From NCBI GenBank assembly GCA_964623585.1, contig CAZURU010000002.1, positions 1 to 55,171 of the forward strand: a DNA stretch of 55,171 nt, read 5' to 3'. The DNA comes from an uncultured bacterium (GTDB lineage Bacteria > Poribacteria > WGA-4E > WGA-3G). The notes below the pieces were generated by a model. The model was given only the letters and a program-made list of their open reading frames with translations. It was not told the origin of the DNA and ran no database searches. The position numbers and the translations under genes were made by a program. This document shows, one piece after another, positions 8,539 through 30,120 of this stretch (the stretch's first letter is position 1; every line of letters begins with the position of its first letter).

Positions 8539-8901
8539 ATGGAATATCTTCCGATAGTATTCTTAGGACTCTTTGCAGTTCTGTTTGCAGGCGTTAATCT
8601 TGGCTTGACTCATCTTCTCGGACCCAAAAAACCCACAAAAGTCAAACTCTCTGTCTACGAATCTGGTGTGCAACCTGTCGGTGATGCAAGACAAAGGTTC
8701 ACTATCCGGTTCGATCTTATAGCGATGCTCTTTATCATCTTTGATATTGAGGTGGTTTTTCTGTATCCGTGGGCGGTGATATTTAAAAGATTTTCAGCCG
8801 AAAATGGTATGTTTATTTTAGTTGAGATGCTGGTGTTTATCGGTATTCTCCTTCTGGGTTACATTTATGCTTGGAAAAAAGGAGGCTTAACATGGGATTA
8901 G
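8539..8901 (+). CDS. nuoA: NADH-quinone oxidoreductase subunit A
   Basis: 120 aa with 3 TM segments. Contains YESG..P.GDA and FD.E..FLYPWA motifs. Confidence 0.9.
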
Positions 8902-9410
8902 CCAATCCGAATATTGAAAGTGGACATAGAGCTGACCAAAGCGAAGGTAATTTCGTCACAACCACTATTGACAAAGTCGTGAATTGGGGACGCAAGAATT
9001 CACTGTGGCCAATGCCGTTCGGAACTGCTTGCTGCGCAATTGAAATGATGGCAACTTTGGCATCCAAATTTGACCTTTCTCGTTTCGGGTCCGAGGCAAT
9101 TCGATTCTCACCGCGTCAATCTGATCTACTAATCGTCTCAGGCCGAATCTCAATCAAAATGATGCCTGTCCTCAAACGGATTTATGACCAGATGCCTGAA
9201 CCAAAATGGGTTATCTCAATGGGGGCATGTGCATCCTGTGGAGGCGTTTTTGATACGTATACCTTAATACAAGGTGTTGACCAATTTTTACCCGTTGATG
9301 TTTATATCCCTGGTTGTCCCCCAAGACCCGAAGACCTGATTGATGCTGTAATGCAAGTGCAACGGCAGATACATAAAGGTGAACTGCCAAAAGGGGCTGA
9401 GGTTGCATAA
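8892..9410 (+). CDS. nuoB: NADH-quinone oxidoreductase subunit B
   Basis: In-frame ATG at 8892 preceded by AGGAGG, so the ORF-track start at 8871 is probably too early. N2-cluster cysteines are present: [22 protein letters not shown]. Confidence 0.92.
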
Positions 9411-9958
9411 TGAATGAAGAAGAAAAAGAGAATACGGAAGAAACGACACCTCGCGTCCTTGAAGAGGTACGAGAAAAGTTCGGTGATGCACTCTTAGAAG
9501 ACGCAGAATCACAGAACGGGGTTGTCGTTGTCGTAAATAAAGATAAGAGTTTCATACTCTTGGAATACTTAAAGACAGAATTCGCCTATTCTTTCCTCGT
9601 AGATGTCACCGCAGTTGACAATTCTAATTTAGAATCAGAGTTGATGAAGTATGACTATGCACGATTCATGGTCATCTATCAACTTTACACTTTTGAAGGG
9701 GAAACCCCGCGTATTCGGATCAAAGTGCCGGTACATGAAAAAGATTTGAAAATCCAATCGGTGACGGATCTATGGAAAGGGGCAAACTGGCTTGAACGTG
9801 AAACCTACGATATGTTCGGTATAGACTTTGATGGACACCCCGATTTACGGCGAATTTTAATGCCCGATGATTTTGAAGGACACCCACTTCAAAAGAATTA
9901 TCCCTTACGGGGAAAAGGTGAGCGCGAAAGTTTTAATTTTGAAAAACAGAATGTCTAA
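9410..9958 (+). CDS. nuoC: NADH-quinone oxidoreductase subunit C
   Basis: 182 aa. Contains ANWLERETYDMFGIDFDGHPDLRRILMPDDFEGHPLQKNYP. TAATG overlap with nuoB. Confidence 0.9.
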   Translation: MNEEEKENTEETTPRVLEEVREKFGDALLEDAESQNGVVVVVNKDKSFILLEYLKTEFAYSFLVDVTAVDNSNLESELMKYDYARFMVIYQLYTFEGETPRIRIKVPVHEKDLKIQSVTDLWKGANWLERETYDMFGIDFDGHPDLRRILMPDDFEGHPLQKNYPLRGKGERESFNFEKQNV

Positions 9959-10019
9959 CAAGACAATAAATAGACAGATGATGTTGCCCCTAATATTGAA
10001 AATATATGGAGGATTGAAT

Positions 10020-27090: not shown

Positions 27091-28580
27091 TGAAATCAAC
27101 ATTTTTATCTTGTCTAATACTATTTGTTGTTCTTGGACTTACCCTTTCCGTTTCAGTAGATGCCTTCGGTGCCGATGAAGACGCAAACGGCGAAGCACAC
27201 GGACACTATAAAGTTGATGGTAAAAACTTGCCACTTTGGAGTATCATACCATTTGTCGGTATACTCCTATCAATTGCTCTATTACCACTCATCTTTGATT
27301 CTCATTTTCTTGTACATCACGGTGGAAAGATGTCATTGGCATGGGGATTAATCTTCGGAATACCTTATCTTATTGCCTACGGGGGAGACGCAATTCACGA
27401 CATCCTATACATCTATCTGATAGATTATATCCCATTTATTGTTCTCTTGTGGGGGTTGTTCACAGTTGCTGGTGGGATTCTCGTGCGCGGGACACTTCGT
27501 GGGACGCCAGTAGTCAACACACTTCTGCTCTTAATCGGCACCGCAATTGCTTCTTGGATAGGTACGACAGGTGCATCCATGCTCCTCATTCGTCCGTTGA
27601 TTCGTGCCAACGCGTATCGTAAGAGCAAAATTCACTTGGTTGTCTTCTTCATCTTTCTGGTAAGTAACATCGGAGGATCTTTAACACCTTTGGGAGACCC
27701 ACCACTCTTCTTAGGTTTTCTGCATAATGTCCCCTTCTTCTGGACAACAACAGCACTATTTCCACACATGCTATTTATTAGCGTTATCTTAATAGCACTT
27801 TTCTTTATCATAGACACATTTATGTTCAAACGTGAAGGCGGCGTCGTGCCAGACGACGGTACAAGCGAACCAATTCGGGTTGATGGACTCTTTAATCTCG
27901 TTTTCCTTCTCGGAATCATCGCTGCTGTATTGATGAGTGGAACTCTCAAATTGGGAGAAATCAATATCTTTGATGTACATGTAAAATGGCAGAACGTCGC
28001 GCGTGATGTATTGATTGTCTTGATGGGACTGTTTTCGCTGAAATTCACACCCGTTGCCGGTAAATTACGCCAAGATAACGAATTCTCTTGGGAACCGATT
28101 GAGGAGGTAGCGAAAGTATTCGCGGGAATCTTTATCACGATTATCCCTGCGTTGACGATCCTCGGCGTTGGTAAGGATGGGGCAATGCGTTGGCTTATCG
28201 CTGCAATAGAAGAACCGATGCACTACTTCTGGGTAACAGGCATCCTCTCCAGTTTCTTAGATAATGCACCGACATATCTGACGTTCTTCAACACCGCCCT
28301 CGGGCAACTGGAGCTTACCGAAACTGTTATCCCTCAGATCGTATCTGGCCAATTGGATGGTCCAGAGCACCTGCAGTTTATTAGACTGCTGACTGCTATT
28401 TCAATCGGCGCGGTTTTTATGGGGGCAAATTCTTATATCGGCAACGCACCAAATTTTATGGTAAAAGCCATTGCTGAACAGAGTGGTATCCGAATGCCGA
28501 GTTTCTTCGGCTATATGTTATGGTCAGTCGTCATTTTATTCCCACTCTTTGTTATTGTGACTTTTGTGTTCCTGCGATAA
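27090..28580 (+). CDS. Ion-transporter superfamily permease (ArsB/NhaD/CitMHS-like; putative Na+/H+ antiporter type) with N-terminal signal peptide
   Basis: 496 aa polytopic protein. Family-typical motifs GGSLTPLGDPPLFLGF and SSFLDNAPTYLTF. The GTG start shares one nucleotide with the nuoM TAG stop. Confidence 0.7.
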   Translation: MKSTFLSCLILFVVLGLTLSVSVDAFGADEDANGEAHGHYKVDGKNLPLWSIIPFVGILLSIALLPLIFDSHFLVHHGGKMSLAWGLIFGIPYLIAYGGDAIHDILYIYLIDYIPFIVLLWGLFTVAGGILVRGTLRGTPVVNTLLLLIGTAIASWIGTTGASMLLIRPLIRANAYRKSKIHLVVFFIFLVSNIGGSLTPLGDPPLFLGFLHNVPFFWTTTALFPHMLFISVILIALFFIIDTFMFKREGGVVPDDGTSEPIRVDGLFNLVFLLGIIAAVLMSGTLKLGEINIFDVHVKWQNVARDVLIVLMGLFSLKFTPVAGKLRQDNEFSWEPIEEVAKVFAGIFITIIPALTILGVGKDGAMRWLIAAIEEPMHYFWVTGILSSFLDNAPTYLTFFNTALGQLELTETVIPQIVSGQLDGPEHLQFIRLLTAISIGAVFMGANSYIGNAPNFMVKAIAEQSGIRMPSFFGYMLWSVVILFPLFVIVTFVFLR

Positions 28581-28650
28581 GCAAGTTAATGTTTTTAATG
28601 ATTATTCTACAGTCTGTCCGACATTATATATAAAACGGGGGAGATTCAGA

Positions 28651-30120
28651 ATGCCTGAGTTTATTACACCTGAAATTAATTGGTCACTCATCATGCCATC
28701 ACTTGTGATCGTTGCAACGATGCTTATTGTCCTAATCTTTGACCTTTTCGATTCAATTTCAAAAAAGGTCCTTGGCCTCATAACTATCGCTGGAGCAGGA
28801 ATTGCCTTGGTGGAATCCATTAGAATGCTACAGAAGAAGTCGTATGGAACGCAATTCGGAGGCATGTTTGAGGTAGATGCCTATTCTCTCTTTTTCAATA
28901 TTATCTTCCTCGTTTCAACAATTCTGGTCGTACTCATCTCATTAAGTTATTTAGGAAGAGACGATAGAAAGCAGGGACCCTACTACCTCCTTATCTTACT
29001 GGCAACACTCGGTATGATGTTGATGGCTGCAGGTAATGAGCTGATTATCGTCTTCCTCGGCTTAGAACTGATGTCATTATCGTTGTATGTATTAGCAGGT
29101 TATTTCCGGGACAATCCTGCCTCAAGTGAAGCAGGAATGAAATACCTCCTGCTCGGTGCGTTCGCAAGTGCGTTTTTCCTATACGGAATCGCCTTAATTT
29201 ACGGTGCGACCGGTACAACCAGCATTCCAGGAATTGCCCAATACTTAACTGGCCTTACCGCTGATAGTGAATCTACACTTCCCGGTCCATTCTTATATGC
29301 TGGTGTATTCTTACTCATCGTTGGCTTCGGTTTCAAAGTCGCAATCGTTCCGTTCCATCAATGGGCACCAGATGTCTATGAAGGCGCACCGACCACAATT
29401 GCCGCATTCATCTCTGCAGGACCAAAAGCAGCAGGATTTGCAGCGTTTGTAAGAATATTCATGGACGCATTACCAAATATTGAGACGCAATGGAGCACGG
29501 TTCTCATCATCTTGGCAATACTAACAATGACTGTTGGAAACATCATTGCTATTGCACAGACAAACATAAAACGGATGTTGGCATATTCAAGTATTGCACA
29601 CGCTGGATACGTACTGATCGGTTTAGCAGCGGCAAACAGCACGGGAACGTCAAGCGCAATTATGTATCTGCTTATTTACTGTGTTATGAATATAGGAGCG
29701 TTCGGTGCAGTCATCTTAGCAAGAACTGCTGATGGGGAGAGTTTGATGATTTCCGATTATGCAGGACTCGGTTTCAAAAAACCTCTAATCGGTATGTTAA
29801 TGTCACTCATGTTGCTGTCCCTTGCGGGTTTTCCCCCAACTGCTGGGTTTGTAGGAAAATTCTATATCTTCAAATCCGCTGTTGAAGCTGGACATATCCC
29901 GCTCGTAATTGTCGGTGCTATCAACACAGCTATCTCAGCGTTCTACTATTTACGCGTCGTCGTAACGATGTATATGCGTGAACCTGAAGATGAATTAGAG
30001 TTCAACCCATATCCGTCAACCTTAGTTATCGGACTCGTTCTTGCAGCAATCGGCGTTATACTGTTTGGTATTCTACCATCTTTGATTGTTAATCCTGTCC
30101 AAGCCATCGCTTTTAACTAA
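28651..30120 (+). CDS. nuoN: NADH-quinone oxidoreductase subunit N
   Basis: ATG at 28651 follows GGGGGAG. 489 aa. Contains PFHQWAPDVYEGAPT and KRMLAYSSIAHAGY. The ORF-track start at 28564 is rejected. Confidence 0.92.
   Translation: MPEFITPEINWSLIMPSLVIVATMLIVLIFDLFDSISKKVLGLITIAGAGIALVESIRMLQKKSYGTQFGGMFEVDAYSLFFNIIFLVSTILVVLISLSYLGRDDRKQGPYYLLILLATLGMMLMAAGNELIIVFLGLELMSLSLYVLAGYFRDNPASSEAGMKYLLLGAFASAFFLYGIALIYGATGTTSIPGIAQYLTGLTADSESTLPGPFLYAGVFLLIVGFGFKVAIVPFHQWAPDVYEGAPTTIAAFISAGPKAAGFAAFVRIFMDALPNIETQWSTVLIILAILTMTVGNIIAIAQTNIKRMLAYSSIAHAGYVLIGLAAANSTGTSSAIMYLLIYCVMNIGAFGAVILARTADGESLMISDYAGLGFKKPLIGMLMSLMLLSLAGFPPTAGFVGKFYIFKSAVEAGHIPLVIVGAINTAISAFYYLRVVVTMYMREPEDELEFNPYPSTLVIGLVLAAIGVILFGILPSLIVNPVQAIAFN

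Follow-up and report, generated by a model that had tools for sequence, protein, structure and literature searches.

Can the operon for respiratory complex I be a lasting home for selfish and defence genes? The question is raised by a contig of 55,171 bp from the metagenome-assembled genome (MAG) of a Candidatus Poribacteria bacterium of the sponge-associated type, which was analysed over its whole length and is called the window below. Its complex I (nuo) operon, at 8539-30120, holds non-nuo open reading frames (ORFs), here called cargo, between the subunit genes; a junction is named by its two flanking genes, so that C/D lies between nuoC and nuoD. The best explanation that we see is that the pattern represents a denser and longer-lived version of the known restriction-modification (RM) "operon insertion". 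We think it reasonably likely that the inserted genes are promoterless passengers, expressed by read-through from nuo, that are gained, duplicated, decay and are lost.

Organisation of the nuo operon

Genes were called by profile matches to Pfam, NCBIfam, PDB and PADLOC. In agreement with the initial annotation of the locus, 13 nuo genes (A-H and J-N) lie in canonical order on one strand, with a strong Pfam match for each:

8539-8901, + strand: nuoA (Pfam Oxidored_q4)
8892-9410, + strand: nuoB (Pfam Oxidored_q6), ATG start at 8892
9410-9958, + strand: nuoC (Pfam Complex1_30kDa)
10782-11978, + strand: nuoD (Pfam Complex1_49kDa, 1e-114)
14096-14620, + strand: nuoE (Pfam 2Fe-2S_thioredx, 5e-51)
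15979-17457, + strand: nuoF (Pfam)
17463-19100, + strand: nuoG (Pfam)
19162-20370, + strand: nuoH (Pfam)
20385-20930, + strand: nuoJ (Pfam)
21139-21444, + strand: nuoK (Pfam)
21448-23370, + strand: nuoL (Pfam)
25507-27090, + strand: nuoM (Pfam), TTG start
28651-30120, + strand: nuoN (Pfam), ATG at 28651, 489 aa, the same call as in the 99%-identical locus L085

Four starts are revised compared with the first reading: sodC (ATG at 10020), nuoB (8892), the E/F methyltransferase MTase1 (14684) and nuoN (28651). The genes nuoA, nuoB and nuoC overlap or abut one another, and the spacers at F/G, G/H and H/J are tight (6, 61 and 14 nt).

Non-nuo ORFs are found at C/D, D/E, E/F, L/M and M/N, the five junctions first reported. 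There are 11 cargo ORFs, and the claim that all are co-oriented holds, as 11/11 lie on the + strand. The start/stop coupling noted earlier is also seen: ORFs overlap by an ATGA at 12878 and again at 13072, by 8 nt at 24605-24612 and by 1 nt at 27090, and at 15497 a single nucleotide separates two ORFs. In total the extra DNA makes up 6.66 kb of the 21.6-kb nuo span, and the biggest non-coding gaps are 248, 208 and 153 nt.

Relatives were collected through NuoG. This gave 30 poribacterial genomes with 73-93% identity, many of them complete chromosomes; in other phyla the identity is 47% or lower. No protein identical to NuoG of the window is on record. The comparative set consists of the window and these 30 loci (31 operons), in which the window proteins were mapped and every junction was measured. 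Fetched loci carry L numbers. A contiguous set of 14 genes, nuoA-N, is not present in the window: nuoJ directly follows nuoH, and no ORF with the CxxCxxCxxxCP pattern of nuoI occurs anywhere in it. The same gene is missing from 31/31 poribacterial loci and from a Latescibacterota outgroup, and must be encoded elsewhere in the genome.

That the joins are assembly chimeras is extremely improbable. The window is a MAG contig, and the perfect 640-nt internal repeat shared by two of its Uma2 genes (Uma2a and Uma2b, see below) is a hazard for short-read assembly. However, the segment from nuoL through the L/M methyltransferase and nuclease genes, including a 217-aa nuclease product, was assembled identically from four different runs. 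Further, the stretch that runs from nuoE across the E/F cargo to nuoL is colinear, with 93% DNA identity, in L081, an independent chromosome-scale contig of 5.9 Mb from another sample, and nuoM, the permease gene, nuoN and the downstream sequence are 98-99% identical in L085. The gene sodC recurs at C/D in L001 and L021, and the architecture of the junctions is seen again across the 30 genomes.

Junction occupancy across Poribacteria

A junction was counted as filled when it held at least 300 bp of extra DNA. The denominators differ per junction (24-31 operons, 22 for M/N), and nuoM was seen in 28 operons, all of which (28/28) keep its TTG start. The occupancy is as follows:

D/E: filled in 26/26
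L/M: filled in 19/27
F/G: filled in 9/31
C/D: filled in 6/24
G/H: filled in 6/31
E/F: filled in 3/30
K/L: filled in 1/29
A/B, B/C, H/J and J/K: filled in none (A/B and B/C in 24 operons, H/J in 31)

Overall, 71/329 junctions are filled in Poribacteria compared with 19/245 in other phyla (Fisher p = 5e-6, a test that ignores kinship). The extra DNA per poribacterial operon ranges from 1.0 to 9.6 kb, so the window is typical of its clade. Cargo orientation was counted for ORFs of at least 100 aa and then by family: in the 31 operons 122 such ORFs are on the plus strand vs 2 on the minus strand, and by family the ratio is 40:1 (p = 4e-11). Relatives with empty junctions, for which a synteny check had been proposed, do exist. 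C/D is 49-55 bp in L004-L006. In their ancestral state the junctions are tight, as seen at E/F (12-17 nt in twelve genomes), at L/M (39-104 nt in the clade-B genomes L022, L023, L028 and L030) and at D/E (13 nt in the Latescibacterota outgroup).

The poribacterial cargo census comprises 138 ORFs. Among these are 19 glyoxalase genes, 16 DUF5069, 13-15 Uma2, about 12 type II methylases and 4 restriction enzymes, together with MazF and a partner (3), hicBA pairs or remnants (about 6), and PIN and MNT genes. ParB-like, YhgA-like, WYL, ABC transporter, WD40 and LRR proteins and many unknowns make up the remainder. A single cluster of HicA toxins and a lipoprotein family was rejected, as the two were joined only through a chimeric ORF in L002.

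When the cargo is placed on a NuoF-G-H tree, a variable shell is seen on top of clade-specific cores: one core has glyoxalase at D/E and DUF5069 at L/M, and the other has a CarboxypepD_reg protein at D/E and mazEF at G/H. Three cargo families, hicBA, an ABC ATPase and C6 (a coiled-coil membrane protein of 138-141 aa), have moved between different junctions. C6 stands alone at F/G in L007, L012, L014 and L017, and L002:4182-6755 is a tandem duplication of Uma2 plus C6 with near-identical 36-nt spacers.

Two core families are gone from the window. The glyoxalase/VOC protein (113-133 aa) is encoded just after nuoD in 19 genomes, and the DUF5069 protein (about 140 aa) just before nuoM in 14 genomes, with 16 copies as it is sometimes duplicated. 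Together with the NhaD-like antiporter at M/N (see below) they are candidates for lineage-specific complex I accessories.

A mobile restriction-modification unit between nuoE and nuoF

The E/F junction holds a methyltransferase gene (M), a nuclease gene (R) and a hairpin:

14684-15496, + strand: MTase1, beta-class DNA methyltransferase, 270 aa (Pfam N6_N4_Mtase 2e-40; PADLOC MTase 1e-93)
15498-15890, + strand: putative Hpy99I-like beta-beta-alpha-Me (EndoVII-fold) type II restriction endonuclease, 130 aa (PDB 3FC3 7e-17; PADLOC REase_II 1e-17)
15914-15939, + strand: hairpin GTTGGGTT-N11-ACCCAAC, with orthologous hairpins in L004, L005 and L008

MTase1 has the motifs SPPY ... FxGxG. Residues 8-123 of the nuclease align to residues 76-196 of Hpy99I, with conservation of the DHDH...N motif and the CxxC pairs, so that the beta-beta-alpha-Me core, the catalytic His and the Cys4 zinc sites are all recognisable. 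The initial annotation had named a methylase and an EndoVII-fold nuclease here. By its motifs and alignment the nuclease is, more precisely, an Hpy99I-like putative type II enzyme, which forms an intact two-gene RM unit with the methylase. A restriction activity of the protein is presumed; the alignment starts only at residue 76, so that the N-terminal ~70 aa of Hpy99I are absent, and there is also a similarity of 33-37% identity to small "endonuclease VII" proteins of phages. The short form is a conserved family with numerous homologues of 129-135 aa and 65-97% identity. The fold of the hairpin is weak (-10 kcal/mol, z = -1.3).

The unit is demonstrably mobile. In twelve genomes, including the sister L001 (17 nt), E/F measures 12-17 nt, vs 1361 nt in the window; it is tight in L001, L002, L009, L011, L013, L014, L021 and L029, and the site is also empty in L003 and L007. 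L081 has the pair too, with an identity like that of the flanks. Homologues of both genes occur, at 83% and 74% identity, in two unrelated loci outside nuo (L082/83 and L084), and in L084 the pair adjoins a fragment of an insertion sequence (IS). The homology of the L082 and L084 pairs to the window is confined to 14684-15876, i.e. to the two ORFs. At E/F of L017 there is a distant pair (47%/38% identity), and such a low identity points to an independent capture. The two genes thus travel together in four contexts (window/L081, L082-83, L084 and L017). On the same strand, inside an operon and with an empty site in close relatives, the E/F unit is an RM operon insertion, and it is recently inserted.

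The free-standing copies share a 5' leader of ~70 nt with TTGACT and a palindrome with 7-bp arms, which the nuo copies lack. The missing leader is the strongest hint so far that the copy inside nuo relies on transcription from upstream.

Two other ideas on the origin of the unit were dropped. An 8-nt repeat CTATCGGA flanks it and could be taken for a target-site duplication; its right copy is not conserved in L081, and we ascribe the repeat to chance. For a plasmid or phage origin there is one weak plasmid methylase match, and the phage EndoVII-like proteins are only distant (33-37%).

A decaying PabI-family system between nuoL and nuoM

The following features lie at L/M:

23479-24612, + strand: MTase2, gamma-class N6-adenine-type DNA methyltransferase, 377 aa (PADLOC MTase_II 8e-83)
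24605-25347, + strand: frameshifted gene of an R.PabI-family restriction glycosylase (Pfam RE_R_Pab1, PF09522, 5e-27)
25470-25486, + strand: hairpin GGTGCTGAGGTAGCACC ~20 nt upstream of the nuoM TTG (-11.8 kcal/mol, z = -3.2)

A methylase and an unknown protein had been reported here. The methylase stands, with NPPY at residue 110, while the unknown protein turns out to be a frameshifted homologue of R.PabI. Its half-pipe (HALFPIPE) domain is matched by R.CcoLI (PDB 7CFA, 5e-38) and R.PabI (2DVY, 7e-12). MTase2 overlaps the start of the nuclease gene by 8 nt and is putatively its cognate adenine methyltransferase.

The catalytic triads of the family are Y68/H211/D214 in R.PabI and Y52/H222/D225 in R.CcoLI (PMC7806768), and homologues measure 246-248 aa. 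In the window, the ORF at 24605-25258 encodes 217 aa, and a 1-nt deletion places the last 31 codons (25255-25347), including HHKD (His222/Asp225 of R.CcoLI), in another frame; a Tyr/His/Asp triad is therefore not present in a single frame. The frameshift is reproduced in four independent assemblies. As it removes the codons of the catalytic His and Asp, the nuclease gene is either a pseudogene or the source of a truncated protein that is probably inactive. Judged by its reading frames, the most likely state of the system is a dead nuclease next to an intact methylase. Depletion of GTAC and CGWCG was dropped as a read-out of restriction, since it is uninformative: the observed/expected ratio (O/E) of GTAC is 0.69 in the window and 0.64-0.94 in relatives both with and without the L/M genes.

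MTase2 is found at L/M in 10 genomes, and its pairwise identity tracks that of NuoG, NuoL and NuoM (r = 0.53-0.73). Residence at the same junction in 10 genomes, with divergence in step with nuo, makes it an old resident. The idea that the nuclease/methylase modules are mobile cargo therefore holds for the E/F unit and fails for this methylase. Its GC is 0.32-0.39 vs 0.42-0.49 in the flanks, 8-10 points lower in 10/10 genomes. A per-gene GC profile, as had been proposed, gives a divided picture: GC is low for the L/M methylase of the window (0.33) and host-like for SodC (0.44).

The nuclease is kept only in L013, where it is intact, and in the window. In relatives the methylase is mostly an orphan, and in L001 it is itself frameshifted. 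The hairpin before nuoM is shared by a subset of genomes: L001, L002 and L010 conserve it, and L008 and L021 have variants of it.

Genes and remnants between nuoD and nuoE

At D/E, with L/M one of the two main hotspots, the window carries mostly debris, together with two intact Uma2 genes:

11984-12072, + strand: remnant of a glyoxalase/VOC gene, the last ~19-27 codons (tblastn, 70-93% identity to C-termini)
12132-12881, + strand: Uma2a, 249 aa, intact (Pfam Uma2 4e-13; PADLOC PDC-S03, a candidate defence family)
12878-13075, + strand: orphan HicB-like antitoxin, 65 aa (Pfam HicB_lk_antitox 2e-07)
13072-13299, + strand: 5' fragment of a lipoprotein gene, signal ...VSGC plus ~60 aa (tblastn, 57-66% identity)
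13300-14064, + strand: Uma2b, 254 aa, with its own ribosome binding site (RBS) and ATG (Pfam Uma2)

The glyoxalase gene (Pfam Glyoxalase) is intact directly after nuoD in 19 relatives. The leader and spacer of the remnant are colinear with L008 and L005, and the spacer upstream of Uma2a is orthologous to L005, L008 and L017.

Uma2 (PF05685) is a putative restriction endonuclease of the PD-(D/E)xK type. Both D/E copies match the family (4e-13 and 8e-13), and the D...E.F.S...K positions are invariant in 4/4 window copies. Uma2a and Uma2b are 100% identical over a centre of ~640 nt and divergent at both ends. An identical centre with diverged ends indicates that older paralogues were homogenised by gene conversion. 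From the Uma2b stop to the nuoE start there are 31 nt.

The HicB-like protein is conserved to residue ~47 and then diverges. No HicA is found in the window, so that a HicAB pair is absent, and the next ORF is the lipoprotein fragment; in L021 and L025 HicB is followed by a true HicA. The fragment matches the N-termini of proteins in L001, L005, L017 and L021, is 273-290 aa at full length in relatives, and is fused in frame to Uma2b (fusion ORF 13072-14064). The series Uma2, HicB-like, Uma2 described earlier is thus present as genes and is not one module: two gene-converted Uma2 copies enclose an orphan antitoxin and a fragment.

The C/D, M/N and J/K junctions

The remaining cargo and the repeats at J/K are as follows:

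10020-10586, + strand: SodC, Cu/Zn superoxide dismutase (Pfam Sod_Cu 2e-41; NCBIfam SodC)
10626-10778, + strand: hydrophobic mini-ORF, 50 aa, ending 3 nt before nuoD
20992-21117, + strand: two tandem 63-nt elements resembling repetitive extragenic palindromes (REP), with stable hairpins around GCGAGGTTnnCTAACCTCGC
27090-28580, + strand: CitMHS_2/NhaD-like ion transporter, 496 aa (Pfam CitMHS_2 2e-175)

The pair sodC plus mini-ORF at C/D is borne out by the family matches and the ORF position. SodC is intact (188 aa) with a lipoprotein signal (...LAGC). At C/D the gene is found only in the window, L001 (76%) and L021 (68%), i.e. in 3 of ~25 operons. The mini-ORF has no family match in Pfam or NCBIfam; L002 (44%) and L003 (61%), both of which are without sodC, keep it in this position.

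The M/N transporter, named "sodium:proton antiporter" by NCBI, had been listed as a permease among the cargo. It is not mobile cargo. With copies in 22/22 operons of Poribacteria and in 0/13 from other phyla, it is an ancient operon member. Its start overlaps the nuoM stop by 1 nt.

The REP-like repeats claimed for J/K are real. Their hairpins fold at -21 and -24 kcal/mol (z = -3.8 and -4.9), and three further copies lie outside nuo. The five window copies of the GCGAGGTTnnCTAACCTCGC family, at 20999, 21062, 39934-39953, 45103-45122 and 45175-45194, are all on the + strand within + strand gene arrays. The repeats are missing from the 93%-identical L081, and the sole copy among the fetched loci is in L008.

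Other C/D junctions hold non-coding DNA. L015 (4821-5201) and L029 (5019-5396) share an orthologous insert of ~380 nt with 75% identity and no shared ORF. It carries the tRNA T-arm-like GGTTCAAGTCC without a match to Rfam or to a tRNA, and no further copy was found in any fetched locus. RNAalifold, run on these two sequences only, predicts 85 pairs, of which 15 show compensatory changes. From this predicted fold, the insert may be an undescribed structured RNA inside the nuo operon. In L009, L010, L014, L016, L018 and L029 the C/D spacers contain long imperfect palindromes with 7-nt periodic units (CAGCAGT/CAGTCAG ... GCTGATAGC), which is a distinct REP-like family of another poribacterial clade.

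Proposed expression and maintenance of the passengers

How might such genes be expressed and kept? The best sigma-70-like candidate upstream of nuoA is at 8343-8370 on the + strand (TTGACA-16-TAAAAT), the sole 11/12 match in the region. In the consensus scans the counts of promoters and terminators equal the shuffled expectation, and a consensus has little power in an uncharacterised phylum. No terminator-like site on the + strand was found by such a scan in any junction. Since the spacers are in several places too short for promoters (31 nt before nuoE, 3 nt before nuoD), read-through is likely.

We infer co-transcription, a selective filter and a stabilising mechanism; the anatomy, co-orientation and decay described above, the movement of the E/F unit, the empty sites and the old age of MTase2 at its junction are shown directly. 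D/E and L/M are the main long-lived sites of gene gain, duplication, decay and loss, followed by F/G, C/D, G/H and E/F. Tolerated passengers would be those that run in the same direction and lack terminators, with antisense or terminating inserts selected out. They would be transcribed from the nuo promoter by read-through and translated via their own RBS or by coupling. Addictive modules would enter as units bounded by their ORFs and be held by post-segregational killing; imprecise deletion would harm the flanking respiratory genes, and passengers would thereby be retained. Once the toxic partner is mutated, a module would erode or persist as an orphan. At D/E and L/M, a first ancient insertion probably opened the way for those that followed.

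The passengers would then form three layers. The first is domesticated or fixed, with the NhaD-like antiporter, the near-fixed glyoxalase-family and DUF5069 proteins and possibly the periplasmic SodC. The second is selfish or defensive and would include the E/F RM unit, the decaying L/M PabI-family RM system, the Uma2 genes and a hicBA reduced to an orphan antitoxin. Debris and REP-like hairpins would be the third.

Several observations count against this explanation. No mechanism of insertion is seen: there is no target-site duplication, integrase, transposase or attC-like repeat in the window, and no ORF in 8.5-30.1 kb has a recombinase domain. The comparison with other phyla does not rest on phylogenetically independent data points. 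Read-through is deduced from spacing and absent signals only, and the 108-nt and 248-nt spacers around the L/M cargo, or sequence inside the cargo, could hold promoters. Further, insertions occur outside nuo as well: there is a second Uma2 pair 5' of hemE (40015-41474), REP-like copies are found at 39934 and 45103-45194, and in relatives there are insertions at trkH/pdxH (L020, 3.3 kb) and gcvP/trkA (L095, 1.35 kb). The view that colonisation centres on nuo is to that extent not upheld.

The last group of facts also favours a rival in which nuo is not special: Uma2, RM, toxin-antitoxin (TA) and REP-like elements would saturate the genomes of Poribacteria wherever neighbouring genes run in one direction, an operon of 13 genes would just have many junctions on offer, and the strand bias would be that of the whole genome. 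Strong avoidance of many 4-base palindromes (maximal-order Markov O/E of 0.10 for CTAG and 0.31 for TCGA) is in line with it, as is a report in which sponge symbionts are described as enriched in RM and TA (PMC5649159). We nevertheless find it rather unlikely. In this window selfish and defence cargo takes up ~26% of the nuo span vs ~4% of the remaining 33 kb, and the very uneven occupancy of the nuo junctions, from 0/24 to 26/26, points to specific permissive sites. The gcvH-gcvP-trkA-trkH-pdxH array is mostly tight in relatives, with three insertions, a comparison that has only ~5-16 observations per junction. An equally doubtful proposal is that the inserted genes are respiration accessories co-regulated with complex I, where the antiporter converts the proton gradient, SodC clears superoxide, and glyoxalase and DUF5069 serve assembly or protection. 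It would fit a permease that is universal in Poribacteria and translationally coupled to nuoM, glyoxalase and DUF5069 genes whose position is always the same, the host-like GC of SodC, and the R. capsulatus nuo cluster with its urf genes (PMC9036352). The NhaD antiporter and pterin dehydratase genes of the Rhodothermus marinus nqo operon would fit as well. However, the proposal leaves the RM, Uma2, hicBA, mazEF, PIN, ParB-like and YhgA-like cargo unexplained; the window has lost glyoxalase and DUF5069 yet keeps its nuo set intact, and SodC occurs in just 3 of ~25 operons.

The cargo might also have promoters of its own, with D/E and L/M as boundaries between transcription units (nuoA-D, nuoE-L and nuoM-N). 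D/E is indeed the border between the genes of the quinone module and the NADH module, a conserved hairpin precedes nuoM, and weak promoter-like matches are found before Uma2b (13059-13088 and 13248-13276) and before MTase2 (23414-23441). Against this, the junctions are too short for a terminator and a promoter where cargo is minimal (the four clade-B genomes with 39-104 nt at L/M), D/E of clade A1 holds only a gene of ~115 aa with spacers of 25-50 nt, nuoE follows Uma2b so closely, and no junction has a + strand terminator-like site. E/F, C/D, F/G and G/H are colonised too. We judge this arrangement distinctly improbable. A more far-reaching version of the passenger explanation can be offered only tentatively and is itself doubtful: D/E and L/M would be dedicated, long-lived "cargo bays" in which translational coupling was lost through an ancient insertion and promoterless ORF units, addictive RM, TA and nuclease genes above all, are captured again and again, expressed by read-through, shielded from deletion by essential neighbours, and domesticated or eroded, similar to an integron without integrase and forming a phylum-wide reservoir of defence genes within a housekeeping operon.

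Comparison with known systems

The closest precedent is RM operon insertion, a class in the Kobayashi group's classification of RM mobility, in which RM genes lie on the same strand within an operon, as described for the PabI family in Helicobacter and Campylobacter and for other RM systems (PMC4615327). The PabI family is mobile, is inherited over long times at orthologous loci and enters operons on the same strand, and the insertion was suggested to enforce operon maintenance via post-segregational killing (PMC4615327). The poribacterial operons share with it an RM pair between linked genes on the same strand, empty sites and a PabI-family member. They also share long inheritance at an orthologous locus, where R decays or is replaced and M persists. 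However, the published cases are single insertions; here a single operon takes up two different RM systems, together with Uma2, TA and further genes, at several of its junctions. In addition, the junctions are reused phylum-wide, for instance by two unrelated versions of M plus an EndoVII-fold nuclease at E/F.

Non-subunit genes in complex I operons have also been seen before. In Rhodothermus marinus, genes for an NhaD-type Na+/H+ antiporter and for a pterin carbinolamine dehydratase are co-transcribed with the nqo genes. The two operons are alike in having a transporter of the NhaD/CitMHS superfamily among antiporter-like subunit genes, and in having subunit genes outside the operon (reportedly nqo8 and nqo9 there, nuoI here). 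We know of no report of selfish modules in it. The nqo cluster of Paracoccus denitrificans reportedly contains unidentified reading frames (URFs). In R. capsulatus the nuo cluster carries urf7 among the nuo genes (PMC9036352). Such alphaproteobacterial clusters resemble ours in the co-oriented non-subunit ORFs between the genes of a canonical cluster. To our knowledge these URFs are few, lineage-stable and not RM, TA or nuclease genes, and turnover, pseudogenes and empty sites have not been described for them.

Integron cassette arrays are similar in their compact co-oriented ORFs, short spacers, presumed single upstream promoter and frequent gain, loss and duplication. The window differs in having neither an integrase (no recombinase is present) nor attC-like repeats, as imperfect inverted repeats do not recur at the cargo ends, and in that the cargo is interleaved with essential genes and does not follow an attI site. 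With defence islands and hotspots the operons share RM, TA and PDC-S03/Uma2 genes at a few reused positions flanked by core genes. Here, in contrast, the cargo is inside an operon, measures 0.4-8 kb vs tens of kb, is strictly one-stranded and lacks the hallmarks of mobile elements (integrases, tRNA targets, direct repeats).

The initial annotation had suggested that such dense colonisation of nuo was undescribed. For the density and the phylum-wide persistence this stands; the single ingredients have precedents. We found no earlier description of several selfish modules in one complex I operon, of phylum-wide junction reuse, of near-absolute co-orientation, or of all life-cycle stages together.

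If the cargo rides on nuo transcription, this would be a clear case in nature of selfish and defence genes that use an indispensable operon for their expression and at the same time as protection against deletion. The whole life cycle would then be visible side by side, from insertion and addiction to loss of the toxic partner and an orphan methylase or domesticated gene. It would also define a class of defence-gene locations overlooked by island-based searches, and operon membership in uncultured phyla would be unsafe for predicting function by guilt-by-association. Further, abundant sponge symbionts would provide a set of empty and filled alleles that is open to testing.

Other features of the window

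The second tandem Uma2 pair (40015-40737 and 40794-41474) lies upstream of a hemE - MBL/TPR - hemH - hemY cluster. Its two copies are near-identical to each other where aligned, and copy two lacks ~21 residues of the C-terminal coiled coil. They are ~60% identical to the nuo copies and, like these, combine an identical core with a C-terminal coiled coil that varies. It seems that Uma2 genes exist as tandem pairs that undergo gene conversion. An alcohol dehydrogenase (ADH) gene beside this pair was considered as an ortholog of the ADH gene beside the RM unit in L082, which was rejected at 23% identity.

Further palindromes are avoided in the window, with O/E values of 0.44 for GGCC, 0.53 for CCGG and 0.58 for GATC. 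Palindrome avoidance suggests long exposure to many restriction systems. Rfam gave no match on the window and six relatives.

Directly 3' of the operon there is one more repeat:

30184-30296, + strand: three tandem 38-nt hairpin repeats

On the - strand, 30291-36941 holds adjoining ORFs of 517 and 1684 aa, the larger with a weak SprA_N match. In the near-identical L085 they are a single gene of 2168 aa, and the window copy appears to be split by a stop or frameshift. At the other end, a giant ORF on the + strand (47684-55171, at least 2,496 aa) runs off the contig end and contains a 333-nt tandem repeat at 48143-48780; just 5' of it, at 46909-47098, the 8-nt unit TCTTCCAA is repeated 24 times.

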